47,082 nt of DNA from Escherichia phage vB_EcoS_WF5505 (NC_073060.1), one strand, 5' to 3'; shown: positions 1-47,082, counted from the stretch's first letter. Notes: a model not told the origin generated them from the letters alone. Translations and numbers: made by a program.

Positions 1-103
1 CAGCAGATAGCGATCAACTTTTTCATACGCATGATTAATATTGGTTGCATTCAGCCTGGCACCCTGCTAGATTGGTTGCACACCAACGAGAGGACCAAAC
101 AAA

Positions 104-274
104 ATGAAATTTCCAGTAACCATCAAAGACGGTAAATCAACTATCACCTTCACCAGCAACGACCAGGGCACCTATGAAAGCGGGGCGACTTGCATGTCTA
201 CCCTGGACGATGTGATGATTCGTGTTAATTCCGGTAAAGCCTCGATTGTTGACGACAACACTAAGAAGGACTGA
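104..274 (+). CDS. Hypothetical small early protein (56 aa, MKFPVTIKDG...)
   Basis: ATG preceded by GAGAGG Shine-Dalgarno; stop 3 nt before next ATG; under 60 aa so absent from ORF track. Confidence 0.5.
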   Translation: MKFPVTIKDGKSTITFTSNDQGTYESGATCMSTLDDVMIRVNSGKASIVDDNTKKD

Positions 275-277
275 ACA

Positions 278-583
278 ATGAGAGCATTAATCTGGAAATA
301 CTCACGGGCCATAGCGAAGCTGGACGAAGCGAAAAACACAAACGGCAACGTAGACTATGCGCGCCAGTTTGCGGCACGGGCACACCAACACATCATGAGT
401 GCGCTCGACGATATGGACGCCAGCATGGATGACCTGGGTCCGCTGCGTAAGGCTATCCATGAATACGCGCTGGCATTCTCCCGTGAGCGCCTGGCCTATC
501 GCTTCGGTATTGGCGATAAGGCAGTGACAAACGTTGCCCGGATTAAAGCCCAGCGTGAGCTATTCGCCCAGCTTGCGAAATAA
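278..583 (+). CDS. Hypothetical early protein (101 aa)
   Basis: Track ORF in a tightly packed same-strand gene run; no recognisable motif. Confidence 0.6.
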   Translation: MRALIWKYSRAIAKLDEAKNTNGNVDYARQFAARAHQHIMSALDDMDASMDDLGPLRKAIHEYALAFSRERLAYRFGIGDKAVTNVARIKAQRELFAQLAK

Positions 584-592
584 GAGGCCAAA

Positions 593-862
593 ATGACCCG
601 TAGACGCGCAAAACAGCTTTCGTGGCATATCCCCCTGCATTGCATACGAATATGGGCTAAGAATGCGAATGAGGGCGATTCAGTGTTCTGGTGCTATCGC
701 GACGACGTTAAGCCGTTGACGCAGACTCGCTACTTGCACCAGTTCGCAGCACAACACGATTTCAGGGTGCGGACTTCCTTGCAACCAATGGGGATCCGTA
801 TTACATTACGCCGGAAGCCCGCCGTTGAGCGGGTAGGCAAACACTGGAGACTGAGCAAATGA
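593..862 (+). CDS. Hypothetical early protein (89 aa)
   Basis: Track ORF; stop overlaps start of next gene (ATGA coupling). Confidence 0.55.
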   Translation: MTRRRAKQLSWHIPLHCIRIWAKNANEGDSVFWCYRDDVKPLTQTRYLHQFAAQHDFRVRTSLQPMGIRITLRRKPAVERVGKHWRLSK

Positions 863-1203
863 TTCGAGTAACCGCACGCCACGAACAATCGGGGGCCACT
901 TACGATGTAATCGACGTTCGCGGCGCGTTCGTCATCTTCGGACGGGGTGACGACCGGCTGGCGCTGCCGATCGGTATGCTGAGCACATACGACTATTTCA
1001 AGCATAACGTCCGGTGTGGCGATGTGCTGCGCGATAAGCGCACCGGTGAGCTATGGACGGTGGCGAGTATTTGGGTGAAAGATAAACGGCAGCACACGTT
1101 ATTGCTCGCCCGCCCGGATTGCAAACAGCAAACTATTAACACTATTGGCCTGGTGGACTACACCCGCGTAGGCCGTAACGCTACCTGGAGACTGAGAAAA
1201 TGA
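859..1203 (+). CDS. Hypothetical protein, paralogue A (114 aa)
   Basis: Track ORF; shares GDVLRD-R-G-LW-V and GL--Y-RVGR motifs with the next gene. Confidence 0.6.
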   Translation: MIRVTARHEQSGATYDVIDVRGAFVIFGRGDDRLALPIGMLSTYDYFKHNVRCGDVLRDKRTGELWTVASIWVKDKRQHTLLLARPDCKQQTINTIGLVDYTRVGRNATWRLRK

Positions 1204-1832
1204 AATTACTATTCCGCCGTAACTCAGATGGCTATATCCTGAAGCCGATCCAGACCCTATCGAACTGGGTACGCCTCCACCACGTTGCGAGTGATAAAGT
1301 CTGGTGGGCGACTAAGGCAAAGCTGCCGGAGTACTACGAAATCCTCACACACGATATCGAGCGCGGCGATGTGCTGCGGGATATTCGCGACGGGCAATTG
1401 TGGGTCGTGGAATACGTGGGTCGGCACGGCCTGCGTATGACGTCCCGCAAGGATGGCGTAGCGGGCAACATGGTCAAGGGCATGACTTACTTCGGGCTAC
1501 TCCACTACGAACGAGTGGGCCGCAAGTACAGCCTGCGTGCGCGCCAGCCTCATGAGCGAGCGAACGCCATAGCGGACGTCGTTAACCGCGTAGCGCGGGA
1601 GGTGGAGCAGAAGACACGCGTTGAGTTCTGCAAGTCCCAGCCAGCCTATGCAACCTACGACGCGAGCAAAGCGCAGGAATTGATCCGCAGTGCCACGCAT
1701 GAAATCATCAATCACGTTGATGCCATGACGAACGCCAAGCGCCAGGCCAGCGAATACGGCGTAGGATTCATCCGTGTCGAACAAGACGGCAACATGACCG
1801 CCATCGACCCGCGCACGGTAATACTGAAATGA
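1200..1832 (+). CDS. Hypothetical protein, paralogue B (210 aa)
   Basis: Track ORF; N-terminal half is paralogous to 859-1203, translationally coupled (ATGA). Confidence 0.6.
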   Translation: MKLLFRRNSDGYILKPIQTLSNWVRLHHVASDKVWWATKAKLPEYYEILTHDIERGDVLRDIRDGQLWVVEYVGRHGLRMTSRKDGVAGNMVKGMTYFGLLHYERVGRKYSLRARQPHERANAIADVVNRVAREVEQKTRVEFCKSQPAYATYDASKAQELIRSATHEIINHVDAMTNAKRQASEYGVGFIRVEQDGNMTAIDPRTVILK

Positions 1833-1953
1833 GCGCAACTATCCGTGATATGCTTATGCATAACCGCTTTGAGATAGGCGGGAGAGTGTTCTGCAATTAC
1901 TTCGTGGCGCGTGCTTGGGCGCGCCATATCGGAAAACCAGTAGGGGCAATACG

Positions 1954-2241
1954 ATGCTACACGATTTGATATTTTGGTTTGGTTTGGGGTGTGCGTCACT
2001 CTTTGCTATAGTGCTGGCGCTGTTGATTTGGATCTTTCTGGTATGGCCCGCGGTGGAAGCCGCCAGCATTACCCGGATGACGTTCCAGATATACAAGCGC
2101 CGAGGCATAACGGAACACCCGACCAGGTTGCGCATGTGGTGGCTATGGTATCTGGATATGCTTGGAGGCCGAAGGTTTGAGGCCGTCCGATCATCCGGGT
2201 GGGAATGGAAAGGCGTCGGCAAGTGGTCCATTTTCGATTAA
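1954..2241 (+). CDS. Small membrane protein (about 95 aa)
   Basis: ATG with AGGGG RBS, in frame with track ORF 1915-2241; hydrophobic helix FWFGLGCASLFAIVLALLIWIFLVW. Confidence 0.5.
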   Translation: MLHDLIFWFGLGCASLFAIVLALLIWIFLVWPAVEAASITRMTFQIYKRRGITEHPTRLRMWWLWYLDMLGGRRFEAVRSSGWEWKGVGKWSIFD

Positions 2242-5244: not shown

Positions 5245-5270
5245 AGCCCGCCGATTTGGTGGGCTTTTTT
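5245..5270 (+). terminator. Rho-independent terminator
   Basis: AGCCCGCC...GGTGGGCT hairpin followed by TTTTTT. Confidence 0.55.
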
Positions 5271-5354
5271 GTGCCTGTTATAATCCCCCTTAGATGGCTG
5301 GGCCGTCTCCTATGTTGCCGATGGTCGGCGCATATGCATAAAAGGGCTTATATC

Positions 5355-5906
5355 ATGGCAGAAATCAAAGTTAAGGGCCGTCGTGCCAAACTGGACGGTC
5401 GAGTAGCAGTTACCCCGCGCCGTAAACCAGGCGAGCAAACAGAACACACCAATCTTGGACCCGAGATCGAATACGGCAAGCGTCGTAAAGGCGGCAAATG
5501 CGGACGCCCGACTGACTACCGCACCGTGTATTGTGACCAGCTTCGCCGCTATTTTGCTGATGCCGTAGCCTGGCAGATCAACTACTCCGACAAGGGTGCT
5601 GCGCAAGTCATCCCTCACAACAAGATGCCGACTCTCGGTCGCTTTGCCGCGGATATTGGCGTTGGCATCGCTTGCCTGTACCGCTGGGCGCGTGCACATG
5701 AGGAGTTCGCCGAAGCAATGGCGGACGCTATGGAGTTGCAGAAAACTTTCCTGATGGAGGCAGGCGGCGTGACCATCGCGGCGGGCTTCGCAACGTTCCT
5801 GCTTAAAGCAAACCACGGCATCCGTGACGATGCGCCGCTGGATGACGACGAAGATGATAACGGCGACGTCGTTGTCGAACCTACCGGCAAAGGCCAGGGC
5901 GAATAA
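5355..5906 (+). CDS. Putative terminase small subunit
   Basis: Immediately upstream of and coupled to the large terminase; acidic C-terminus; ATG with AAGGG RBS in frame with track ORF 5256-5906. Confidence 0.5.
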   Translation: MAEIKVKGRRAKLDGRVAVTPRRKPGEQTEHTNLGPEIEYGKRRKGGKCGRPTDYRTVYCDQLRRYFADAVAWQINYSDKGAAQVIPHNKMPTLGRFAADIGVGIACLYRWARAHEEFAEAMADAMELQKTFLMEAGGVTIAAGFATFLLKANHGIRDDAPLDDDEDDNGDVVVEPTGKGQGE

Positions 5907-10361: not shown

Positions 10362-10874
10362 TTACAAACGCATCGGCATGATAACTAAAAAGGCACCTCC
10401 TTTGAACAGCACGCGTGTTGCCTTGTCTACTCCCTGAAATTCCAGTTTTAAGCCCTCAAACTTATGGTCGAACAATTTAGCAATTTTGCAGGCGTCGGAC
10501 AGGTATGCCCCTTTAAACCCGATAGCCTCCACTTTATTGCTGACGAAAGACGTAACTCTTCTCCAGTCTGGAAATCGTCCGTCTACAATCTCGATGGGTA
10601 TGGTAGCTATTAATACGTCTTTACTATCGAAGAACGCGGCGGAGGTGCCGTCTATGTTGCAGTATTCGAATTTAGTAGGTAAGCGGCCTTTAATTGATAC
10701 TATTTTACTTTCACCTTCTGGTACAACCGCAGACCCGCAGAACAAACGGTGACCGTCTGTAGCCACGATGTATCCTTTCTCGTCGAAAAATACACCATTT
10801 AGGAAGTATCGGACGTCATTAGTTGCGGCGCATATCGTAGCGGCTTTAAGATCGGCGTAGTTAACTTTAATCAT
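10362..10874 (-). CDS. Truncated beta sliding-clamp (DnaN)-like protein, 170 aa
   Basis: Matches E. coli DnaN (recalled, not searched): VRYFLNGVFF, ATDGHRL, VDGRFPDWRRV and C-terminal MPMRL; start MIKVNY with GAGGA RBS. Confidence 0.7.
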   Translation of the reverse strand: MIKVNYADLKAATICAATNDVRYFLNGVFFDEKGYIVATDGHRLFCGSAVVPEGESKIVSIKGRLPTKFEYCNIDGTSAAFFDSKDVLIATIPIEIVDGRFPDWRRVTSFVSNKVEAIGFKGAYLSDACKIAKLFDHKFEGLKLEFQGVDKATRVLFKGGAFLVIMPMRL

Positions 10875-10931
10875 TTTAATTTCCTCGTGGTTATGTAGAC
10901 GATAATTCGGGGCCATTACAGCCCCCTTTTG

Positions 10932-11696
10932 TTAGCGCGGAATACCGCAGATTTCGTTTAACGTCTTCACATCCAGCGCTACTGCCGTTGACTTCGGCTT
11001 GTCCGGGTATGGAATGAATTGTTCAACTTCAGGCCACGCCGCGATCAGCTTCTTGTCAGTATTGTGCATATCCAGCACGCCGGTAACGGTTAGTTTGAAC
11101 GCGTCATACTTCGCACGCAATTCACGGCGGGCCTTGTCGTTGTGGTCCAGGCGCTTGCAGAAATCATGCTCTGCCGGGTAGTCTACGCGACCGCGTGGTA
11201 GATATATCGGCAGCGCTTTTCCGTCCTCATCCACTTCACATACTGACGCGAGCATAATTTCCTCGTACCCCGGTACAATATCGCTAACGTCAGGCGCGAG
11301 CGTATTCATATATTTTTCTTCCCAGTATCCGCGGTGCTGGCGGTAGCGGTATCCGTCGCCGCTCATATGCAGGGTACGGATGTTACCGCCTGCGTTGATT
11401 TCGAAAGTGGAGCAGTAAACGCGTCCAATGCCTTTCTGACGGTCTTTGTTATAGCTATACGTCGCCTTGTCGGTGTAAACGCTGACGCCGTACATCTGCG
11501 ACTGGTTATCGCGGATTTCTGCGATATATGCGCGTAGCTCGGCGAACGTGTGAATGCCTTCTGGCATACAGTCCAGCGTAATTGCGTACGCCAGGTCGCG
11601 AGAGGCCATCATGATTGATTTGGCTTCAGTCGCGATTTCGTGGTCGCGCAGGATGTTAGCCAGAATCTGGTTTTTAATGTCTTTTGTCAGTCTCAT
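10932..11696 (-). CDS. Hypothetical protein (254 aa), upstream partner of DnaN-like gene
   Basis: Start MRLTKD with GAGGA RBS inside track ORF 10932-11741; no recognised motif. Confidence 0.55.
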   Translation of the reverse strand: MRLTKDIKNQILANILRDHEIATEAKSIMMASRDLAYAITLDCMPEGIHTFAELRAYIAEIRDNQSQMYGVSVYTDKATYSYNKDRQKGIGRVYCSTFEINAGGNIRTLHMSGDGYRYRQHRGYWEEKYMNTLAPDVSDIVPGYEEIMLASVCEVDEDGKALPIYLPRGRVDYPAEHDFCKRLDHNDKARRELRAKYDAFKLTVTGVLDMHNTDKKLIAAWPEVEQFIPYPDKPKSTAVALDVKTLNEICGIPR

Positions 11697-11845
11697 TTGT
11701 GTTTCCTCATTGTTGGTGTGCAACCAATATAGTGCAACCAATACCTGTATTGCAAGCGAATTTTGCGATTATTTTTATCGCTGATAATATTAAAGGCGTG
11801 AAGTCGAGCGGGTGGCCCGCTCTGCCACGATCCCAGGGGGATAGC
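11697..11845. promoter_or_regulatory. Divergent promoter region with two TGCAACCAAT copies
   Basis: TGCAACCAAT at 11719-11728 and 11733-11742; candidate plus-strand sigma70 elements TTGCGA (11763-11768) and TAATAT (11785-11790). Confidence 0.45.
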
Positions 11846-16625: not shown

Positions 16626-16640
16626 TTGGAGAATATTACA

Positions 16641-17003
16641 ATGGCTAAAGCACCACTCTTCACACTTGACCCTAAGCCGACCTTTAAGCTGCCGATTGAG
16701 ATCCCGCGCCCTGGTGAGAACGAACCAGGCAAGATGACGTTTACCGTCCGCCACCGCCCGATCGACGAGTTTTCGCAGACCATGCAGGACACCGAACGCA
16801 AGCTATCGGAATATGACGACAATGACCCTGACGGCTTTAACGTTATGGTTGAGGCCATCATGCACGTCGCTGAAGGCTGGAATCTGCCAGACCAATTTAA
16901 CGCTGAGAACGTCCGCCGTCTGGTAGTCAACTACCCCCGTGCGTTCGGCGTGTTCCACACCTCGTACTACCTCGAATTGATGGGACTACGTGAAAAAAAC
17001 TAA
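16641..17003 (+). CDS. Tail assembly chaperone (G-like)
   Basis: 120-aa acidic protein between major tail and tape measure genes; ends with slippery A_AAA_AAC. Confidence 0.7.
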   Translation: MAKAPLFTLDPKPTFKLPIEIPRPGENEPGKMTFTVRHRPIDEFSQTMQDTERKLSEYDDNDPDGFNVMVEAIMHVAEGWNLPDQFNAENVRRLVVNYPRAFGVFHTSYYLELMGLREKN

Positions 17004-17317
17004 TTGAGGCGGCGCGACGCTTTTATGGCCCGCCGCCACCCTCCGAAGATGTAGCCGCAAGTTTATGGGGCGCGGCCCCCGAAGATGTTTGCCCGTCTGT
17101 TGCGCTATGGCCCGACAACGCGAAGATAGTCGCAGTCTTCACAGATTGCTCTACGCAATGGCGCACCGGATTCGGTGGGGCATACGGCATCGACTACGGA
17201 GTTCTGGAGTGGCTATTTAAGATGCACGGCATCGAAAACGAGCAACGTGCATTTAAAGATATAAAGCTAATGGAACGGATCGCGCTTGACGAAATGGCGC
17301 AACAAAACCCCGCATAA
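16641..17317 (+). CDS. Tail assembly chaperone GT-like fusion via programmed -1 frameshift
   Basis: A_AAA_AAC at 16994-17000 just before G stop; the -1 frame is open from 17000 to 17317 with no start codon of its own. Confidence 0.6.
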
Positions 17318-17319
17318 TG

Positions 17320-17645
17320 AAGCGGGACAAGCGGGACGTCCCGATCTGTCCCGTTTTGTCCCGCCCCTGTAAAACTGCATATCTACTCACTTTCATTGCA
17401 TAAACTCAAAGCGGGACAAGCGGGACGTCCCGCTTTGTCCCGCCCCTAAATATGCATACCTATTCAGATTTCGTGCATAAAACAAACGGGACAGAAAGCG
17501 GGACAAACAAGGGGCGGGACAAAGCGGGACAGCACCCCGTCCCCGTCAGTGCTGCCGCGGGTTTCAGCCGATCGGGACAGGCGGGACAACTACCAGTCTT
17601 TCAGACTAGACGGGGGTCAATGGCCCCCCTCGTCTTAGACTGAAT
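17320..17645. repeat. Non-coding iteron/palindrome element A
   Basis: Two tandem units with palindrome GCGGGACAAGCGGGACG/TCCCG.T.TGTCCCGC, then direct GCGGGACA repeats and a GC-rich hairpin; homologous to 44770-44945. Confidence 0.8.
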
Positions 17646-17710
17646 AAGGTTTGTTTGAAATTCGCTGATACAATGTCAATCGGCAACTGCATAAAAAAGG
17701 GGACTGCATA

Positions 17711-20356
17711 ATGGCAGATCAAGCAGCAGGCATCACGCTAAAGGCGGATGTTGCACAAATCAGAACGGCGAATACGGTGCTGGACTCATTCGCGCAGAAG
17801 TCCGAAAACACCGAAAACAAGGTCAAGAAATTAAACGACACCCTCGGCAACTCAAAAAAGGTGACGAGTGACGCCGCGGGCGGAATGGGGAAGCTGGCAA
17901 CTGAATCGCAGCGGGCCGCCGATGGCATGACGAAGCAGGAGCGACTTGCCAACCGCTTAGGCATGTCGACCAAAAACCTGGGCTTCGCATCGCGTAACGC
18001 CGCATTTCAGTTACAAGATATCGCGGTCACGCTCGAGATGGGTATGCCGGTGCACCGCGTCATGATTCAGCAGCTACCGCAGTTAACCGGGGCATTCGGT
18101 GGACTGGGTAACACGCTGCGTTATGTTGCTGGCTTTCTCGGTCCGGTAGGGATCGGCCTTGCTGCGGTAACGGCAACGCTAGGCGTAGGCGTGGCTATTA
18201 CGTCCCGCGCAGAAAACCAGGTAGCGGCGCTGAATAAGACGCTGGCGCTATCCGGTAACATCTCGGGCCTCACCGCTAACCAGATCCTGGTGCTGTCGGA
18301 GAACGCCGAACGAATGGGCGGTTCATTCAGCAAGACGCGTGACACAATTCAGGCGCTGGCGGCGGCAGGTGTGAAAGCGGGTGCTGACTTCGGCGCGCTG
18401 GCGAAAGTAGTGAACGACTTCGCGAAGGTGTCTAATCAGCCGATCGCCGACGTGGTGGAGTCCATCTCCAAATTGTCCAACGACCCGGTGGGCGGCTTGC
18501 GCGCACTGGCGGACAAGTATCACGTCGTTACCGAGGCGCAGATCCAGCAGGTGCAGTCACTGGTTACGACGGGTCGCGAAACGGAAGCGGTTGCGCTGGC
18601 TAACAAAACCGCAGCGGCGTCGTTCACCAGCATGACCAACGAGATCAAGTCCAACATGGGTACGCTTGAGCGGTCGATGAACGTCGTAACATCGGCAGCT
18701 AAATCTATGTGGGACGCCATCCTGGATGTGGGCCGCGCGCAGTCTTCGAATGAATCCGAGATGAAAGCGCGTGAATCATTGCAGCGCATGACCACGGCCT
18801 ACTACGCTGAGATGAAAGCGGTCAACGCTGCCGGTGGGGTAATGACTGAGGCGCAGAAAGCACGAATTAACATGCTTTATAGCGAACTGGTTGCACAGGA
18901 AAAAGTAGTAGCGTCGCTTACCCTGCGCAACCGTGCGGAGCGTGACAACGCCAGCGCCGCGGACAAATCAGCGAAGGCGAACGAGGAGGCCAACCGCACC
19001 GCCCGCGACCGTGCCGCGTTCGAGAAGGAATTTGCCACCAACGCTAAGAAGCGCGCCGACGAGATCGCCCGCCTCAATTTGCTGAATAAGCGCGGTGTGA
19101 TTAACGAGAAAGAACTGGCTGAGGCGGTGAAGCAGGTCAACGAGCGCTACAAAGACCCCGCACCGAAGAAGGCGGCAGCAATTCGCGTCGATGCCGGTGT
19201 TAAAATGCTGGAGGTCGCGCGGAGCGAACTGGCACAGCTTAAGGAGTCCGGCAAGCAGATCGAGGCCAATGCCACAACGCAGACCCGCACGCAGCGCGCA
19301 CAGGCCGCGTTGAATAAGCTGGTGGCGGATAATGAGCAGATGGTCGCAGCAAGCAAGGAGCGCACTCTAACGGCAGCAGAAAAGCAGCAAATGGCTGAGT
19401 TCGAGGCGGTTAAAGCGGTACGAGAGCAGATCGTCGAAGAAGCCAAATTGCTGGACGCGAAAGAGAAGCAGATCAAGGCACACGCCCAGGTCGAGGCATT
19501 CATCAAGAACCAGAATGCCGAGCTAAGGGCCACCGCTGCGGGCTATGCGCTTTCCACTCGCGAAGCGGCTAACCTGCGCGAAGAATTACAGCTAATTGAC
19601 CGCCTTCAGCGTGTCGGGGCTAACGATACCGATATCGACAACGCGGTGTCTAAACTGCGCGAAGTGCAGGAAGCACAGACCGGTGCTAACGCCTCGTTGT
19701 GGGATGGCTTCAGCCGCGGGCTTAAGGATAGCGTGGATGAAATGGGGAACGGCTACACGCAGATGACGTCACTCACAAAATTCACGTTCGGCGCTATGCA
19801 GGACACGATGAACGAGTTTTTCGAGACGGGCAAGCTGAACGCGAAGGATATGGTTAAGTCCATCCTGAGCGAGTTAATCAAGCTGGCTACCTCACAGGCG
19901 TTTAAGTCCATCGTTAGCGCTTTCGGTGGGGACGGCGGCAAAAACGGATTGTTCGGCGCTATCTTCTCTGGCCTTACTAAGAACGCGGACGGCGGAGCGT
20001 ACGCAGGGGGCAATCTCGCGGCCTATTCGGGGCAAGTGGTAAGCCAGCCTACCTTTTTCAGTTATGGCGTTCAGGCGTTCGCTAAGGGCGCTGGATTGAT
20101 GGGTGAGGCGGGGCCTGAGGCAATCATGCCACTGAAGCGCGGGCCGGATGGGAAACTGGGCGTTGCCGCTGCCGGTGCTGGTGGGGGTGGGATGATTGTA
20201 ACAACCAACGTGAACATGGGTACCGGTAAGACGGACACCAGTGTGCGCGGACCGGACCCACGCACCGCGCAGGCGTTCGGAAAGCAAATCACCGAGTCGG
20301 TCAAGGCCGAGATCGTGAAAGCGACGAAACCGGGTGGAGTACTTTACAAACGATGA
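17711..20356 (+). CDS. Tail tape measure protein
   Basis: 881-aa protein with long Ala/Gln/Glu-rich coiled-coil region and Gly-rich C-terminal segment; between GT and tail-tip genes. Confidence 0.85.
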   Translation: MADQAAGITLKADVAQIRTANTVLDSFAQKSENTENKVKKLNDTLGNSKKVTSDAAGGMGKLATESQRAADGMTKQERLANRLGMSTKNLGFASRNAAFQLQDIAVTLEMGMPVHRVMIQQLPQLTGAFGGLGNTLRYVAGFLGPVGIGLAAVTATLGVGVAITSRAENQVAALNKTLALSGNISGLTANQILVLSENAERMGGSFSKTRDTIQALAAAGVKAGADFGALAKVVNDFAKVSNQPIADVVESISKLSNDPVGGLRALADKYHVVTEAQIQQVQSLVTTGRETEAVALANKTAAASFTSMTNEIKSNMGTLERSMNVVTSAAKSMWDAILDVGRAQSSNESEMKARESLQRMTTAYYAEMKAVNAAGGVMTEAQKARINMLYSELVAQEKVVASLTLRNRAERDNASAADKSAKANEEANRTARDRAAFEKEFATNAKKRADEIARLNLLNKRGVINEKELAEAVKQVNERYKDPAPKKAAAIRVDAGVKMLEVARSELAQLKESGKQIEANATTQTRTQRAQAALNKLVADNEQMVAASKERTLTAAEKQQMAEFEAVKAVREQIVEEAKLLDAKEKQIKAHAQVEAFIKNQNAELRATAAGYALSTREAANLREELQLIDRLQRVGANDTDIDNAVSKLREVQEAQTGANASLWDGFSRGLKDSVDEMGNGYTQMTSLTKFTFGAMQDTMNEFFETGKLNAKDMVKSILSELIKLATSQAFKSIVSAFGGDGGKNGLFGAIFSGLTKNADGGAYAGGNLAAYSGQVVSQPTFFSYGVQAFAKGAGLMGEAGPEAIMPLKRGPDGKLGVAAAGAGGGGMIVTTNVNMGTGKTDTSVRGPDPRTAQAFGKQITESVKAEIVKATKPGGVLYKR

Positions 20357-39406: not shown

Positions 39407-40799
39407 TGCTTAAGTCCTCGTCAGTAGCTTCAGACCACGCGGGGCGCGGGTCATCGATTGGTGCCAACACCGGTTTAGCCGGTGCGCGCGTGATTTTATC
39501 ACACAATTTCGCCCACACTTTCGGTTTCTCGTCCTTCAATACCTTCTCGGCATCGGTAGGACTGAGTAATGTTTCTTTATACATTACGTCACGCTTGATC
39601 CGGGCCTTCGTGAAGACTTCAATCACTTCGCTCTCATCCGCCCACTTGCGAATCCCTTCCTTACCGGCAACCATCTTGAGGCCCAGCGATTCACCATCGC
39701 CCGCCATTACGGCCTTGAATACCGCGGACTCGATAGCCTTGATGTGCTGGCGCATTGCGTCAAGACCTTCATATGCCTTGCGCAGTTCCGCCGCGCTCAT
39801 AGCGCCTGGTGCTTCTTCTTCTTTCTTGCCACGCTTCGCACGTCGTGCCGCTTTCCGGGCTTCGCGATCGGTAGCCTTCGGTGCTTCGTCCGCCAGGTCG
39901 TCGTCTGTTGCCGTTGGTGGGGTCATCGTGTCGATGGCGGCCTTAGCGCGGGCACTACACTGATCCGCAAATCTACACCACTGACAGGCATCAACGCTCG
40001 GTCGGAAGTCGGCACGGGTAAGTCCCTTCTTGCCGCGGGAATACGCGTCCAGTGCGTCAATAGCACGCTTGGATGCAAACTTCGCGAATATCTCCAGCGC
40101 TTCCACGGTAATATCCCACTCCGACGCCCCGCCGCAATACGGCTGGAAGATTACCAGGCGAACGGTTGTAATGTCGTACATGGTTTGCAGCTTGCGCAGC
40201 AGGCCCAGCGCGTACAACATAAGCTGTTTGTTTTCTTTCGCCTCGACCTTATGTCGCCCGGTCTTCAGGTCGCCAACAATAAGCATGTACGTGCCGTCGG
40301 TCTTCTTCATGACCATGACCATATCCGCAGTGCCGAACGTCTTAACCCTGTTGCCGTCTATCTCGAAGCCGGGGTGCAAGATGCGGGTGAGATCGGCGCG
40401 CATTTCAAGCTGGACAAACTCCGCCACTTCAAGGAGCGGTCGCCAGTGGTCGATGTACGCGTCACACTGTTTCACCATATCGTCGTTGACCAGTACGCCG
40501 CCTTTCGGTGCTTTCGGGTGCGCCTTTACCGGCCCCTTACCTTCGTTCTCAACGTAACACCCTTTGTACGTCTTCGCGGATAGCTTCTTCTCTCCGGCAA
40601 TGATGCGGTTTAGCACGACTTCTGATACGGTGTGCATACTCGTACCGTTAATCGCAGCTTGCCCGGATTCGTTCGGGATACCTTTTTCGACTACCAGGGC
40701 GGCGGGGCACCCCATCCATTTTTTAGATCCCGATGGCCCGAGTAATGAGTGTTCGGTATTGCTACCGGATTGCGTTTTGCGCTTTGGTTTAATAGCCAT
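39399..40799 (-). CDS. RecB/Cas4-like PD-(D/E)XK exonuclease (DUF2800-like)
   Basis: 466 aa; C-terminal Cys cluster CQWCRFADQC; family assignment from recalled domain architecture. Confidence 0.55.
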   Translation of the reverse strand: MAIKPKRKTQSGSNTEHSLLGPSGSKKWMGCPAALVVEKGIPNESGQAAINGTSMHTVSEVVLNRIIAGEKKLSAKTYKGCYVENEGKGPVKAHPKAPKGGVLVNDDMVKQCDAYIDHWRPLLEVAEFVQLEMRADLTRILHPGFEIDGNRVKTFGTADMVMVMKKTDGTYMLIVGDLKTGRHKVEAKENKQLMLYALGLLRKLQTMYDITTVRLVIFQPYCGGASEWDITVEALEIFAKFASKRAIDALDAYSRGKKGLTRADFRPSVDACQWCRFADQCSARAKAAIDTMTPPTATDDDLADEAPKATDREARKAARRAKRGKKEEEAPGAMSAAELRKAYEGLDAMRQHIKAIESAVFKAVMAGDGESLGLKMVAGKEGIRKWADESEVIEVFTKARIKRDVMYKETLLSPTDAEKVLKDEKPKVWAKLCDKITRAPAKPVLAPIDDPRPAWSEATDEDLSNE

Positions 40800-42072: not shown

Positions 42073-42402
42073 ATGCATATCAACGACGCAATCGAAATGT
42101 TAACCAATGCTGTTAGCGGTGAGACAAGCCGGTCCTGGGCTTATACCGATGCCGTGGGTGAGGTGCTATTTGAAATCGAACGTCTGCGCAGTGTCGAAAA
42201 AGAATTGCGCGCCAAGCTGGAATTGCTAAACGGTACGGCAGCAAGCAAGTTGCAAAAGCACAATGAAGAAATGGAAGAATACAAAAAGCAGGTTATCCGT
42301 TTGCGCGACGAGGGCAAGTCCTGGGCGATGATTGCCGAGTTGACCGGAATTAATCAAAGCACCGTGCGCTCCTGGGTACGCAATAATAAAACTTCTAAGT
42401 AA
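42073..42402 (+). CDS. HTH DNA-binding protein (putative transcriptional regulator)
   Basis: 109 aa; C-terminal HTH-like SWAMIAELTGINQSTVRSWV; N-terminal coiled-coil-like region. Confidence 0.6.
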   Translation: MHINDAIEMLTNAVSGETSRSWAYTDAVGEVLFEIERLRSVEKELRAKLELLNGTAASKLQKHNEEMEEYKKQVIRLRDEGKSWAMIAELTGINQSTVRSWVRNNKTSK

Positions 42403-42412
42403 GGCATCGGCA

Positions 42413-44677
42413 ATGAGCTTAATTAAATTCGCAGTAACAAGACCCGCTAAAAAAGGCGAAAAAGCCAGGGCGGAAAACTTCGAGATGACCACTGATGAAT
42501 TTTTCGAATTTATCAATGATGCAAAAGAAATCTCGTCGGTGCATATCAACAAGACAGAAGATAAAGCCGAGTATGCGCGCCGCAAGCGTAAGGCCGATGG
42601 TATCGTGGCATATACCAATGACGGATTACGCCGCAAGACCAGTGCGGTCGACCGCTCGATCCTGTTCTTCGATATCGACCGTACTGACACCCGCACTTTA
42701 CGCCGCTGCCGTAAGGCGTTCACCGACGCTGGTCTGGAGCATGTATTTCACACCACGACCGGCGACCGTCACCCGTTGAAAGGCGGAACACGTTGCGCCC
42801 GTTTCCTGGTGCTCACTGATAAGCCTGTACCGGCGGAAGACCTGGGCCGCGTCCAGTATGCATTGTTAGACCAACTGGGCCTGTCAGATGTGGACTTCGA
42901 CGATTGTACAAAAGACACAAACCGCCTTATGTACCTGCCTCACCAGCAGTCTGTCATAAAGTGCCATTATGGCAAGCGCGCCCGTGTCCGTCGTCTGCTT
43001 CGCCTGGCTGACAAGCTGGGAGTTGAGAAAGAGGAAGTGCGCCGCGAACTGACCCAGGGCGACGATGGCGTGGCGGACGGGATTCTGGACTGGTGCTTCC
43101 AGGCTGGCTTTGAACCACTGTCATCCGGTCGCGGTTATGAAGTGCCGTGCCCGAATGAGCACCTGCATAGCGGTGAAGGGTCGACGGCTATCATGGTTAA
43201 GGATGGCGAGATCCGTTTCAAGTGTATGCACACCGGCAACGAATGCTGTTCCGAACTGAATAAACACCAGCACCTGGCGTTACGTCTGATCGGTATCCCG
43301 GACCACTTGAACGTCGAACCACACAACATGTCACGCAAGCAAATCGCCGCCATCCTTCCTGGACTGGACGACGAGGAAGTGGAATCGTGCTACGAGCATA
43401 TTGTTGATGCGGTCGGAGACGGCGACGAGTACGGCGAATGCACCGACGCTGACCTGGACAACGAGCCGGTCGCACTGTTCAGTAAGCACGACCCGATTAT
43501 CGAAGGCCTGGTCAACTTCAAATCGACCTGGTATATGGCGGGTGAGTCGAACATTGGTAAGTCGTTCTACGTGCTGGGCCAGATGGGCGCTGTTGCCGCG
43601 GGCATTCCGTTCGGCGGCGCGAAGGTCGTCCAGTCGCATTGCTTCTATTTCGATGCGGAAGGCGGCGAAGCCTCCAACCAGCGTAAAGAAGCATTGCAGA
43701 TCAAATATGAGCACGACCTCGACAAGCTGCACATTATCGACCTGCAATCACGCGGCTGGGATATTACCAGCAAGTCAGGCTTGCGCGAGGTTATCAGCTT
43801 TATCAACCGCACCGCTAACGGGGAGCCGGTTGGCCTGGTGGCCTTCGACTCACTCAACCAGACTGTAGCGCTGCGGTCCGCTGATGCCAAACCGTTCGAC
43901 GAGAACAACGCAAGCGATATGGGCGAAGTGGTCAAGGCGCTGAAGTCCATTGCGGAAAATACAGGTGGCAGTGCGGGCGTCATCCATCACCCGGCTAAGG
44001 GTGCAAACGGCAGCAGGTCACCACGCGGGTCCGGCGCGCTTCATGGTGCTGTAGATTCTGCGTTCTTCCTGGAACAGCCGGACGATAATCAGCCAGGCCA
44101 GCTTAACCTGTATCACGAAAAGTCACGTAACGGCATCAAGCAAGCGCCGCGTGGCTTCGTCCTGCTCAAGTGCAAAGTTAAGGTGGATCTCCGTAAGTCT
44201 GATGCGTTCGAAGCCCACCAGTCCACCAGCACCGGGCCAGACTTCGGCGATGTGGTTGCCGGTTGGGACGTCAAGCCAATTGCATCCACGCCACGCGACG
44301 AGACTCTCTACCTCGTACCGGTCGCCCTGGCACCGTTCGCTATCGAACAGGCTAAGGCAGCAGGCAAGGCAGCAGTTAAGGAAGAGAACACCGCCGGACC
44401 GCGCAACGAGAAAGAGAAGGTGCTTTATGCGGCACTGGAAAAACTGATGGAAGATAACCCGGACCATACTGGATTCAGTAAATCGGCAATTGTCCGCCAG
44501 GCTGGACTTGCGAAAGGTGGCACATCGACGAAGGCAATCGACGATATGGTAGAGCGCGGAGTGCTCGGATTTTATACAGACCCACACACCGGGGCCATCT
44601 ATGGGTCGTCGAATTTAGTCATCAAATCGGATATACCCATCACGCTTTCAGCGACCGATGACGACCTGAAAGATTAA
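42413..44677 (+). CDS. DNA primase / replicative helicase
   Basis: 754 aa; Cys/His cluster CPNEHLHSGEG...KCMHTGNECC; C-terminal Walker A GESNIGKS; coupled to HTH gene. Confidence 0.7.
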   Translation: MSLIKFAVTRPAKKGEKARAENFEMTTDEFFEFINDAKEISSVHINKTEDKAEYARRKRKADGIVAYTNDGLRRKTSAVDRSILFFDIDRTDTRTLRRCRKAFTDAGLEHVFHTTTGDRHPLKGGTRCARFLVLTDKPVPAEDLGRVQYALLDQLGLSDVDFDDCTKDTNRLMYLPHQQSVIKCHYGKRARVRRLLRLADKLGVEKEEVRRELTQGDDGVADGILDWCFQAGFEPLSSGRGYEVPCPNEHLHSGEGSTAIMVKDGEIRFKCMHTGNECCSELNKHQHLALRLIGIPDHLNVEPHNMSRKQIAAILPGLDDEEVESCYEHIVDAVGDGDEYGECTDADLDNEPVALFSKHDPIIEGLVNFKSTWYMAGESNIGKSFYVLGQMGAVAAGIPFGGAKVVQSHCFYFDAEGGEASNQRKEALQIKYEHDLDKLHIIDLQSRGWDITSKSGLREVISFINRTANGEPVGLVAFDSLNQTVALRSADAKPFDENNASDMGEVVKALKSIAENTGGSAGVIHHPAKGANGSRSPRGSGALHGAVDSAFFLEQPDDNQPGQLNLYHEKSRNGIKQAPRGFVLLKCKVKVDLRKSDAFEAHQSTSTGPDFGDVVAGWDVKPIASTPRDETLYLVPVALAPFAIEQAKAAGKAAVKEENTAGPRNEKEKVLYAALEKLMEDNPDHTGFSKSAIVRQAGLAKGGTSTKAIDDMVERGVLGFYTDPHTGAIYGSSNLVIKSDIPITLSATDDDLKD

Positions 44678-44769
44678 ATTTTGCGCGCATTGGTTGCCAT
44701 TTTGAGTGTTTTTAGCTGGCCGCATTGGTTGCCGTGTAGTGTAAATATAGTGAATAGTTATGCAGTTTT

Positions 44770-44945
44770 ATTGCATAAAACAAACGGGACAAAAAGCGGG
44801 ACAGACAGGGGGCGGGACAAAGCGGGACAGCACCCCTGTCCCGCCCCGGATTACGCGGCTTGCAGGGGTGCGGGACAGGCGGGACAAACCCCAGTCTTTC
44901 AGACTAGACGGGGGTCAGTTGGCCCCCCTCGTCTGAGACTGCATA
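44770..44945. repeat. Non-coding iteron element B
   Basis: TGCATAAAACAAACGGGACA..., four or more GCGGGACA repeats, GC hairpin; about 85-90% identical to 17476-17645; after primase-helicase and before right terminal repeat. Confidence 0.8.
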
Positions 44946-45159
44946 AAATCCTGGATTGCATAATGCACGGCAGCATGATGAGAATTGCGGTCGTTGATGA
45001 ACTAGGCAACCAATGCGAGTTGGATAATGGAGAGTGAAAAATGCAGTTTGCAGTTACAGCAGATAGCGATCAACTTTTTCATACGCATGATTAATATTGG
45101 TTGCATTCAGCCTGGCACCCTGCTAGATTGGTTGCACACCAACGAGAGGACCAAACAAA

Positions 45160-45330
45160 ATGAAATTTCCAGTAACCATCAAAGACGGTAAATCAACTAT
45201 CACCTTCACCAGCAACGACCAGGGCACCTATGAAAGCGGGGCGACTTGCATGTCTACCCTGGACGATGTGATGATTCGTGTTAATTCCGGTAAAGCCTCG
45301 ATTGTTGACGACAACACTAAGAAGGACTGA
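45160..45330 (+). CDS. Duplicate of 104-274 (small early protein)
   Basis: Inside right repeat, identical sequence. Confidence 0.5.
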   Translation: MKFPVTIKDGKSTITFTSNDQGTYESGATCMSTLDDVMIRVNSGKASIVDDNTKKD

Positions 45331-45333
45331 ACA

Positions 45334-45639
45334 ATGAGAGCATTAATCTGGAAATACTCACGGGCCATAGCGAAGCTGGACGAAGCGAAAAACACAAACG
45401 GCAACGTAGACTATGCGCGCCAGTTTGCGGCACGGGCACACCAACACATCATGAGTGCGCTCGACGATATGGACGCCAGCATGGATGACCTGGGTCCGCT
45501 GCGTAAGGCTATCCATGAATACGCGCTGGCATTCTCCCGTGAGCGCCTGGCCTATCGCTTCGGTATTGGCGATAAGGCAGTGACAAACGTTGCCCGGATT
45601 AAAGCCCAGCGTGAGCTATTCGCCCAGCTTGCGAAATAA
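45334..45639 (+). CDS. Duplicate of 278-583
   Basis: Identical translation in ORF track. Confidence 0.6.
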   Translation: MRALIWKYSRAIAKLDEAKNTNGNVDYARQFAARAHQHIMSALDDMDASMDDLGPLRKAIHEYALAFSRERLAYRFGIGDKAVTNVARIKAQRELFAQLAK

Positions 45640-45648
45640 GAGGCCAAA

Positions 45649-45918
45649 ATGACCCGTAGACGCGCAAAACAGCTTTCGTGGCATATCCCCCTGCATTGCA
45701 TACGAATATGGGCTAAGAATGCGAATGAGGGCGATTCAGTGTTCTGGTGCTATCGCGACGACGTTAAGCCGTTGACGCAGACTCGCTACTTGCACCAGTT
45801 CGCAGCACAACACGATTTCAGGGTGCGGACTTCCTTGCAACCAATGGGGATCCGTATTACATTACGCCGGAAGCCCGCCGTTGAGCGGGTAGGCAAACAC
45901 TGGAGACTGAGCAAATGA
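45649..45918 (+). CDS. Duplicate of 593-862
   Basis: Identical translation in ORF track. Confidence 0.55.
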   Translation: MTRRRAKQLSWHIPLHCIRIWAKNANEGDSVFWCYRDDVKPLTQTRYLHQFAAQHDFRVRTSLQPMGIRITLRRKPAVERVGKHWRLSK

Positions 45919-46259
45919 TTCGAGTAACCGCACGCCACGAACAATCGGGGGCCACTTACGATGTAATCGACGTTCGCGGCGCGTTCGTCATCTTCGGACG
46001 GGGTGACGACCGGCTGGCGCTGCCGATCGGTATGCTGAGCACATACGACTATTTCAAGCATAACGTCCGGTGTGGCGATGTGCTGCGCGATAAGCGCACC
46101 GGTGAGCTATGGACGGTGGCGAGTATTTGGGTGAAAGATAAACGGCAGCACACGTTATTGCTCGCCCGCCCGGATTGCAAACAGCAAACTATTAACACTA
46201 TTGGCCTGGTGGACTACACCCGCGTAGGCCGTAACGCTACCTGGAGACTGAGAAAATGA
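45915..46259 (+). CDS. Duplicate of 859-1203 (paralogue A)
   Basis: Identical translation in ORF track. Confidence 0.6.
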   Translation: MIRVTARHEQSGATYDVIDVRGAFVIFGRGDDRLALPIGMLSTYDYFKHNVRCGDVLRDKRTGELWTVASIWVKDKRQHTLLLARPDCKQQTINTIGLVDYTRVGRNATWRLRK

Positions 46260-46888
46260 AATTACTATTCCGCCGTAACTCAGATGGCTATATCCTGAAG
46301 CCGATCCAGACCCTATCGAACTGGGTACGCCTCCACCACGTTGCGAGTGATAAAGTCTGGTGGGCGACTAAGGCAAAGCTGCCGGAGTACTACGAAATCC
46401 TCACACACGATATCGAGCGCGGCGATGTGCTGCGGGATATTCGCGACGGGCAATTGTGGGTCGTGGAATACGTGGGTCGGCACGGCCTGCGTATGACGTC
46501 CCGCAAGGATGGCGTAGCGGGCAACATGGTCAAGGGCATGACTTACTTCGGGCTACTCCACTACGAACGAGTGGGCCGCAAGTACAGCCTGCGTGCGCGC
46601 CAGCCTCATGAGCGAGCGAACGCCATAGCGGACGTCGTTAACCGCGTAGCGCGGGAGGTGGAGCAGAAGACACGCGTTGAGTTCTGCAAGTCCCAGCCAG
46701 CCTATGCAACCTACGACGCGAGCAAAGCGCAGGAATTGATCCGCAGTGCCACGCATGAAATCATCAATCACGTTGATGCCATGACGAACGCCAAGCGCCA
46801 GGCCAGCGAATACGGCGTAGGATTCATCCGTGTCGAACAAGACGGCAACATGACCGCCATCGACCCGCGCACGGTAATACTGAAATGA
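46256..46888 (+). CDS. Duplicate of 1200-1832 (paralogue B)
   Basis: Identical translation in ORF track. Confidence 0.6.
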   Translation: MKLLFRRNSDGYILKPIQTLSNWVRLHHVASDKVWWATKAKLPEYYEILTHDIERGDVLRDIRDGQLWVVEYVGRHGLRMTSRKDGVAGNMVKGMTYFGLLHYERVGRKYSLRARQPHERANAIADVVNRVAREVEQKTRVEFCKSQPAYATYDASKAQELIRSATHEIINHVDAMTNAKRQASEYGVGFIRVEQDGNMTAIDPRTVILK

Positions 46889-47009
46889 GCGCAACTATCC
46901 GTGATATGCTTATGCATAACCGCTTTGAGATAGGCGGGAGAGTGTTCTGCAATTACTTCGTGGCGCGTGCTTGGGCGCGCCATATCGGAAAACCAGTAGG
47001 GGCAATACG

Positions 47010-47082
47010 ATGCTACACGATTTGATATTTTGGTTTGGTTTGGGGTGTGCGTCACTCTTTGCTATAGTGCTGGCGCTGTTGA
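47010..47082 (+). CDS. 5' fragment of duplicate of 1954-2241, truncated by window end
   Basis: Same sequence as 1954-2026; the window (and the repeat) ends inside the gene. Confidence 0.4.
   Translation, partial: MLHDLIFWFGLGCASLFAIVLALL

Follow-up and report, generated by a model that had tools for sequence, protein, structure and literature searches.

Region A, a non-coding element of 393 bp at 17318-17710 in the gap that separates tail chaperone genes G and T from the tape-measure gene in Escherichia phage vB_EcoS_WF5505 (NC_073060.1), is well supported by sequence comparison as a multi-site protein-binding array, because its boxes are invariant while the spacers between them drift, and because the sequence of the box is lineage-specific within a conserved architecture. 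Positions are those of the window, i.e. the whole stretch of 47,082 nucleotides that was analysed, and features lie on the plus strand unless marked otherwise. Our favored interpretation, to which we would give a probability of about 0.5, is that region A is an iteron array for a phage DNA-binding protein and that the array may be of the origin type, working with a primase-helicase that loads itself. A sequence-only reading of this DNA had noticed the element and taken it for an origin of replication, a packaging recognition site or a multi-site protein-binding array. The last of these proposals stands, and the features that were described are present in the sequence. What that reading missed is that region A duplicates a module beside the replication genes, here called region B, and that a GenBank record (GQ502199) already annotates both regions.

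The repeats that define region A are far in excess of expectation. For the word GCGGGACA the window has 16 copies where 2.35 are expected, a count reached in 0 of 100 shuffles, and these copies are clustered, 8 within 17322-17588 and 6 within 44796-44886; the heptamer CGGGACA has 21 copies against 6.95 expected, with 11 of the 21 in region A. Counted as pentamers, region A contains 11 GGGAC and 6 GTCCC, for a total of 17 boxes, and region B contains 7. The 5' part of region A is made of two tandem units with a period of 89 bp, and their near-perfect palindromes (17320-17353 and 17409-17442, 94% identical, z-score about -5.8) are as the sequence-only reading had described them, as is the TGCATA-containing AT-rich sequence that follows each of them (17370-17404 and 17447-17481, 74% identical). 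Palindrome 1 (17320-17366; CGGGAC boxes at 17323(+), 17332(+), 17338(-), 17347(-) and 17357(-)) has one additional 10-bp GTCCCGATCT unit compared to most relatives and folds as RNA at -30.1 kcal/mol (z -5.9), and palindrome 2, in the second unit (17409-17445; boxes at 17412(+), 17421(+), 17427(-) and 17436(-)), folds at -27.6 kcal/mol (z -5.8). AT-rich spacer 1 (17369-17408) is 67-70% AT in a genome of 54% GC, with TGCATA at 17376 and TGCATAA at 17397, and AT-rich spacer 2 (17446-17486) is up to 67% AT and has GCATAAAACAAA as its 3' end.

The module of ~170 bp that is common to regions A and B starts at 17474, within AT-rich spacer 2. It continues with four direct CGGGACA iterons (17487-17531; starts at 17487, 17499, 17515 and 17525), whose 12/16/10 spacing is identical in region B, and with a central variable segment (17530-17572) which differs systematically between A copies and B copies and which holds an inverted box-like GTCCCC (17539-17544) and a stem of CAGCAC (17530-17535) with GTGCTG (17549-17554). 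A distal direct pair of CGGGACA follows (17573-17588; starts at 17573 and 17582, 9 bp apart). Four or more direct repeats at about one helical turn had been claimed; the repeats are there, with six starts between 17487 and 17582, and the helical-turn spacing is only roughly right, the intervals being 12, 16, 10, 48 and 9 bp. The module ends in a long imperfect hairpin at 17594-17642 (CAGTCTTTCAGACTAGACGGGGG-loop-CCCCCCTCGTCTTAGACTG), which is nested, as had been noticed, in CAGTCT...GACGGGGG-loop-CCCCCCTCGTC...AGACTG and folds at -24.1 kcal/mol (z = -4.5 against shuffled controls). Folded whole, the 181-nt module did no better than shuffles, either as RNA (z -0.93) or as DNA (z +0.08), and therefore the array as such does not appear to be a structured RNA or a single-stranded DNA structure.

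Region B is the non-coding gap of 480 bp (44680-45159) between the primase-helicase gene and the next gene, which begins at 45160. It has an AT-rich patch of up to 77% AT (44730-44789) and an iteron-hairpin module at 44772-44941, with boxes at 44785, 44797, 44813, 44823, 44837(-), 44871 and 44880 and the hairpin at 44892-44941. The 3' ~170 bp of region A (17474-17645) are a second copy of this module, and the layout of both is the same: GCATAAA, four boxes whose spacing matches between the two copies, one box in inverse orientation, a variable stretch of ~35 bp, a further two boxes and a common hairpin. A distance of 27 kb separates the two regions, and their iterons are identical. Directly 5' of each array is a patch of 40-50 bp with 67-77% AT, an enrichment that is modest. 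Region B also has pairs of the motif TTGGTTGC at its start and further TTGGTTGC motifs between the module and the gene at 45160. At 44756-44778 in region B, and at the same place in the loci L024-L039, we observed a 21-bp element, TTATGCA-N7-TGCATAA, that is found in either orientation among Dhillonvirus genomes, its spacer being GTTTTAT in 5 of 16 and the reverse complement ATAAAAC in 9 of 16, which points to inversion of the loop between 7-bp inverted repeats. Such loop inversion suggests that a hairpin or cruciform forms at this element in vivo.

Comparison with related phage genomes, which had been proposed as a check on the element, showed the repeats kept at the same place in at least 150 Dhillonvirus records. 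A 5-kb query around region A matched 196 phage records, the best of them at 95-99% identity being Escherichia phages of the genus Dhillonvirus (HK578-like siphoviruses), an assignment that agrees with the gene content of the window. Region A itself is present in 157 phage records, and in 150 of these at least 80% of its length is covered. For a finer view, 31 module copies (15 A and 16 B) from 16 genomes, consisting of IMG/VR genomes and the window, were aligned. Invariant columns make up 27 of 36 (75%) in the boxes and 38 of 41 in the hairpin arms, compared to 29 of 101 (29%) among all others (Fisher test against the other columns, p = 2.7e-6 for boxes and p = 8.8e-13 for hairpin arms), while the hairpin loop and the spacers vary freely. 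The only open reading frame in region A (17452-17643) is interrupted by 1-nt indels among relatives and is not kept as a reading frame, so region A is taken to be non-coding. No match to the module was found by blastn in 20,395 E. coli records (complete genomes) or in 72,556 plasmids (PLSDB), which rules out a host repeat or a satellite, and Rfam gave 0 matches at the gathering score over the whole window, where a tRNA/tmRNA scan also found none. Taking together the invariant boxes and hairpin, the lack of host and Rfam matches and the shuffle-like folding, the module behaves, on the evidence of these alignments and searches, as a phage-private DNA site that is under selection at its boxes and hairpin, and unlike a gene, an RNA with structure or a repeat of the host.

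The same alignment bears on the age of the duplication. Module identity is 89.7% among A copies, 87.4% among B copies and 81-83% between A and B, so that A copies are nearer to each other than to B copies, and therefore the duplication predates the radiation of the genus. Gene conversion between A and B has left little sign, since A-B identity is 83.4% within the same genome and 81.5% between genomes.

Relatives outside the genus keep the architecture and change the box. Edwardsiella phage eiAU-183 (Eiauvirus) has long non-coding gaps at both the A and the B places, and both gaps share a different box, TCGCCCCG; the hairpin ahead of its tape-measure gene, GACGGGGG...CCCCTCGTC, is a related one. 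Thus, the A and B boxes have changed together between Dhillonvirus and Eiauvirus while lying 27 kb apart, which cannot be put down to linkage and argues for one trans-acting reader of both. In the chaperone/tape-measure gap of eiAU-183 (42130-42900), gene T is also followed by a canonical terminator, at least one open reading frame lies on the minus strand (42367-42720), and the GenBank record of this phage is linearised within the repeat region. Relatives whose primase-helicase is ~45-50% identical over the full length have one module each, right after that gene, with the boxes GGGGAGA in St162, AGGGAT in both Hafnia phage TS33 and contig L197, GGGGATC in L194, ACTCGCAA in L195, TCGCAA in L196, TTCCGCACA in L198, AGGGATA in L199, TCCGACA in L200 and CGGACAA in L201 and L202. 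A GGGR core shared by all iterons is ruled out by ACTCGCAA, TCGCAA and TTCCGCACA. The arrays of these relatives have an AT-rich 5' side, often with GAATAGTTATGCAG, and on the 3' side a long imperfect hairpin followed by ACGGCAGC. In some of them the hairpin loop carries an inverted copy of the phage's own iteron (TGTCGGA in L200, TTGTCCG in L201, TCTCCCT in TS33), and the Dhillonvirus loop does not. The array adjoins the primase-helicase gene in region B and in its equivalents from 11 further lineages, while region A itself is 27 kb away. Because the relatives with one module hold it there, the position beside the primase-helicase gene is, from this comparison, the ancestral one, and region A is a lineage-specific extra copy. 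In Jerseyvirus SS3e and the K1G-like Kagunavirus, whose helicases match in the ATPase core only, no array was found after the helicase gene, and a pattern search of IMG/VR for GACGGGGG-N3-16-CCCCTCGTC returned 85 stretches, with GGGAC arrays only in the Dhillonvirus ones and the rest attributable to chance.

The protein best placed to read these boxes is the primase-helicase (42413-44677), a protein of 754 aa whose AAA_25 core, of the RecA/DnaB type, spans residues 357-531. Its least conserved part is the ~90 residues before an acidic tail (...ATDDDLKD), and it is here that a winged-helix domain is predicted (44408-44623, about residues 666-737). With a 52-sequence alignment, AlphaFold2 returned helix-helix-helix-strand-strand at a pLDDT (the predicted local distance difference test) of 86-91, about 88 for the winged helix, and the best fold matches of this model are the winged helices of MarR, histone H1, ORC and Cdc6. 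The primase-helicase is thus predicted from the model to carry a sequence-specific DNA-binding domain, a C-terminal winged helix. A PDB sequence search with the primase-helicase found no match to any solved structure; a protein search with the C-terminal 205 aa alone likewise gave no matches, and the full-length query gave matches.

A comparison of St162, L200 and L202 hints at what this domain does. Over the first ~640 residues their helicases are 91-95% identical, compared to 45-61% in the winged-helix part, and the three have different iterons although their helix-turn-helix (HTH) proteins are 97-99% identical. At the DNA level, the three (St162 being locus L189) are otherwise ~90% identical, and identity falls to ~50% exactly over the winged-helix end and the array, from about 280 bp before to 220 bp after the stop codon of the primase-helicase gene; for the pair of L202 and St162 it is back to 84% just after the hairpin. 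On sequence grounds this drop looks like an exchangeable specificity cassette. Conversely, L201 and L202 have a common box and common features of the winged helix (an insertion before the third helix, RRR, and DRH..FR in the wing), despite HTH proteins that are just 36% identical. Such joint divergence of domain and box is what one would expect of a winged helix that reads the boxes, and it falls short of proof. The HTH protein (42073-42402, 109 aa, HTH_23 / Sigma70_r4_2-like), encoded just upstream of the primase-helicase, is disfavored as the iteron binder, its equivalents being 97-99% identical across three boxes and 36% identical across one shared box. A small gene between the HTH and helicase genes of St162, L200 and L202 varies too, but it is absent in Dhillonvirus, L199 and L201 and therefore does not serve as a general binder. 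Neither does a motif at the start of the third helix, RRPAxxxL, work as a predictor of GGGAT iterons, for it fits TS33, L194, L197 and L199 and fails with L200. Judging from these comparisons, the binder of the array is most likely the C-terminal winged helix of the phage's own primase-helicase.

With that assignment, a pathway can be envisioned in which region B is the origin and the primase-helicase recognises its own iterons; the AT-rich DNA beside the iterons would open, and the primase-helicase would load itself and prime. Region B is read as an origin because its layout resembles the one found in pathogenicity islands of Staphylococcus aureus (SaPIs) and because an AT-rich patch lies 5' of the array. 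Having the same iterons, region A would be bound by the same protein as region B, and it could be a second origin or else a bound barrier to the replication fork, as has been proposed for oriR of phage SPP1. Region A consists of the module plus two extra palindromic units, put into the tail operon before the Dhillonvirus radiation. The support for an origin is comparative throughout: the module follows the primase-helicase gene in many relatives and appears to co-vary with the winged helix, and to that extent the origin suggested by the sequence-only reading has gained ground. A more ambitious version, which we consider doubtful, is that a superfamily 4 (SF4, RecA-type) primase-helicase is its own origin-recognition protein, that winged helix, array and hairpin form one exchangeable cassette, and that the tail copy acts as a barrier or second origin; this version would cover a large group of enterobacterial siphoviruses, namely Dhillonvirus, Eiauvirus, the St162-like and TS33-like phages and many metagenomic relatives, with the tail copy confined to Dhillonvirus and Eiauvirus.

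Several known systems resemble this arrangement in part. The SaPI Rep and PriRep proteins use a C-terminal winged helix to bind 6-12 penta- or hexanucleotide iterons that directly follow rep, and they are self-loading helicases that recognise and melt the origin without a loader (PMC9371898). The likeness to region B and the primase-helicase extends to a helicase, joined in SaPI5 to a primase, that has its winged helix at the C-terminus and its iterons downstream of its own reading frame, as well as to AT-rich DNA (modest here) and to iteron sequences that differ between elements (PMC9371898). However, the SaPI Reps are AAA+/MCM-like 3'-5' helicases, while the phage protein has an AAA_25 core of the RecA/DnaB type; the AT-rich DNA of the SaPIs lies between two iteron sets, whereas here it is 5' of the array with a long hairpin on the 3' side; and a SaPI has one ori, while the phage has a second copy in the tail operon. 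In SPP1, oriL lies at the replication genes and oriR interrupts the order of the virion-assembly genes, both containing directly repeated sequences together with an AT-rich element and sharing the same initiator (PMC6316719), and it has been proposed that bound oriR stalls the fork and triggers the switch to concatemers (PMC6316719; PMC3485210). Like the present phage, SPP1 is a lytic siphovirus (~44 kb) with two origin-like sites, one at the replication genes and one among the virion genes. It differs in that its initiator, gp38, is a separate protein working with a loader and a DnaB-type helicase, in that oriL is inside gene 38, and in that oriR is found among head genes with moron genes and not in the chaperone/tape-measure gap; there is also no sequence similarity. 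The alpha protein of satellite phage P4, a second example of a self-loading helicase-primase, unites primase, helicase and a C-terminal winged-helix origin-binding domain in one polypeptide, and its ori and crr are two clusters of the same short repeat, but the helicase belongs to superfamily 3 (SF3), the primase fold is another one, and the repeats and their spacing are unrelated. Lambda-type origins (with iterons inside gene O) and iteron plasmids also combine short repeats, an AT-rich element and an inverted repeat, and among relatives the DNA-binding domain of the initiator and the iterons are exchanged together. Their iterons are 18-22 bp long and a dedicated initiator recruits the host helicase, whereas here the boxes measure 6-8 bp and the helicase itself would be the binder.

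A number of observations weigh against the origin interpretation. We know of no RecA-type (SF4) helicase that loads itself through a winged helix, the characterised cases being SF3 or AAA+. The link between winged helix and iterons is correlative, and as they lie side by side, their being linked in a single mosaic block could partly explain it; the downstream genes also differ among St162, L200 and L202. The third helix of L200 starts with RRPAIMAL, like that of L199 (box AGGGATA), yet the iterons of L200 are like those of L201 and L202. There is no inflection of the GC skew at region A, although the skew tracks gene orientation and is uninformative. St162 has a single array, and hence the wider group needs no second copy. 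Finally, the A and B modules alike run in the direction of transcription, each a short way upstream of the start of an operon, and a transcriptional role fits this equally well.

That role would be one of a boundary or control module for transcription units, in which a regulator bound to the array controls termination, read-through or activation at the starts of two late operons, B preceding the small genes, lysis, terminase and head genes, and A preceding the tape-measure and tail genes; the hairpin would end the upstream transcript and a promoter would restart transcription. We think it rather unlikely as the explanation of the array, yet it is the main rival and a serious one, and it is compatible with an origin role. 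It can draw on an extended -10-like sequence, TGATACAAT, at 17666-17674, 3' of the region A hairpin and ~37 bp upstream of the tape-measure ATG, which is invariant in 16 genomes and which we infer to be a putative promoter; the tail genes from the tape measure onward may then form their own transcription unit. In eiAU-183, the canonical terminator behind gene T shows the tape-measure operon to be a separate unit, and the tape-measure gene there must have its own promoter. The annotators of HK578 and WFI labelled the first palindrome a terminator, and the single-array St162, which has no gap between chaperone and tape-measure genes, fits a transcriptional role as well. Nevertheless, a terminator scan found none on the plus strand within 17318-17710, a sigma-70 promoter scan (which needs a -35 element) had no match in A or B, and no hairpin is followed by a T-run, TAGACTGAATAAGG and CCCCTGTAAAAC being found instead. 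Moreover, 6-17 sites per module greatly exceed the number that a promoter regulator usually has, the modules lie at unequal distances from the downstream gene (~70 bp and ~220 bp), the promoter-like sequences after A and B are unrelated, and the neighbouring HTH protein, which would be the candidate regulator, shows no co-variation with the iterons. A role at the RNA level, as a small RNA or as a nut/put-like antitermination signal transcribed from both modules, would account for the stable hairpin with its invariant arms and for the fact that other genera keep a hairpin at this position, with another sequence. Lambda nutL and nutR likewise sit at the start of two operons. But the array, made of direct repeats with variable spacers, has the pattern of a DNA site, no Rfam family matches, the whole module folds like its shuffles, and covariation within the genus is lacking, as the arms never vary; such a role is accordingly improbable.

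It is more improbable still that the repeats are a pac site bound by the small terminase subunit, as in the packaging recognition proposed by the sequence-only reading. The pac sites of P1 and SPP1 are also arrays of short repeats, and the assemblies of L013, Maverick and Kente end in region A, as that of eiAU-183 begins there. Against this, terS (5256-5906) is ~11 kb from region A, each genome has two copies of the array, and in relatives the array follows the helicase gene and not terS. L013 breaks off in the hairpin loop, as assemblies typically do at a palindrome, and the contig ends that fall within the hairpin look like assembly breaks. The related Dhillonvirus BF9 was typed as headful and permuted, with no reference to the array site (PMC10059673), and the packaging proposal is not supported. 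The least credible of the alternatives, in our view, is a selfish or neutral repeat, i.e. a MITE-like (miniature inverted-repeat transposable element) insertion or a product of replication slippage without function. A duplicated segment at an unusual place, which GenBank labels just as a repeat_region, may look like one, but its constant place in the Dhillonvirus records, its invariant boxes among drifting spacers, its absence from the E. coli and plasmid records searched, and the change of box in step in A and B between genera are all at odds with this idea.

The genome is complete, with a unit of 45,056 bp, as window positions 1-2026 and 45057-47082 are identical over 2026 bp, an identity that is probably the assembly overlap of a circularly permuted genome and not a physical terminal repeat. 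The plus strand carries the terminase, portal, head and tail genes up to ~29.4 kb; a minus-strand block encodes a family A DNA polymerase, a DUF2800 nuclease, an Enc34-type single-stranded DNA-binding protein and an SNF2 helicase; and the genes of the 109-aa HTH protein and the 754-aa primase-helicase form a plus-strand pair at 42.0-44.7 kb. On the 5' side of region A are tail chaperone G (16626-17003; Pfam Phage_TAC_4) and the frame of tail chaperone T, which is open to 17314 and stops at 17315-17320, and on its 3' side is the tape-measure gene (17711-20356, ATG at 17711; Pfam TMP_2 and Tape_meas_lam_C). Within the head gene cluster are two minus-strand genes, 10362-10916(-) and 10932-11741(-), one for an Nmad5 protein (nucleotide-modification-associated), the other, its neighbour, for a product that weakly matches the central domain of DNA polymerase III beta. 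The motif TTGGTTGC has 23 copies in the window against 1.9 expected, most of them as intergenic pairs 14-35 bp apart and oriented with the downstream gene, including sites at 41, 72, 3532(-), 3555(-), 11720(-), 11734(-), 30682(-), 30694, 32356(-), 32373(-), 39130, 39146, 41874, 44690, 44725, 45006(-), 45097 and 45128. One pair precedes the two minus-strand genes of the head cluster, and the motif is twice part of TTGGTTGCACACCAAC right before a ribosome-binding site. Related motifs flank the iteron module elsewhere (GCAACCAAC in eiAU-183, GTTGGCTGC in St162 and TS33, and GCGGCCAAC in L196). From its distribution, TTGGTTGC looks like a phage-specific promoter or operator motif.

The element would be of a known kind, an iteron origin read by a self-loading helicase, and its existence was already recorded in one GenBank record. 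In Sodalis phage SO-1 (Dhillonvirus; GQ502199), one repeat_region, annotated as region A, covers 11214-11597 between gp16 and the gene for the tape measure, and another, region B, covers 40178-40657 after the helicase/primase gene. Both are orthologous to the regions described here, and the record notes 'direct, inverted and palindromic repeat sequences; sequence similarity with region B'. This is a database note, in which the link to the winged helix and the other genera are absent. In other GenBank records there is just a repeat mark, or the first palindrome is labelled a terminator, and we found no analysis of regions A and B in the literature on the repeats or origins of Dhillonvirus, HK578 or SO-1. 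To our knowledge, the replication origins of Dhillonviruses and their relatives have never been mapped, and in isolate collections (BASEL, therapy candidates) these phages rank with the most common coliphages and Salmonella phages.

Even if the origin interpretation were wrong, a strongly conserved protein-binding array would still need explaining. If it is right, the ~390 bp in which annotation pipelines place spurious 'hypothetical proteins' would be a cis-acting replication element, and the primase-helicase would be an initiator that loads itself and whose specificity module can be swapped, which would be useful for building orthogonal phage replicons. It would also help to explain exclusion or cross-talk between co-infecting relatives. 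The copy in the tail operon would be a tractable Gram-negative counterpart of SPP1 oriR for studying the switch from theta to concatemeric replication. Should the broader and doubtful version also be true, the second cassette would set the concatemer switch, and the oriL/oriR logic of SPP1 would have been invented independently in phages of Gram-negative hosts.

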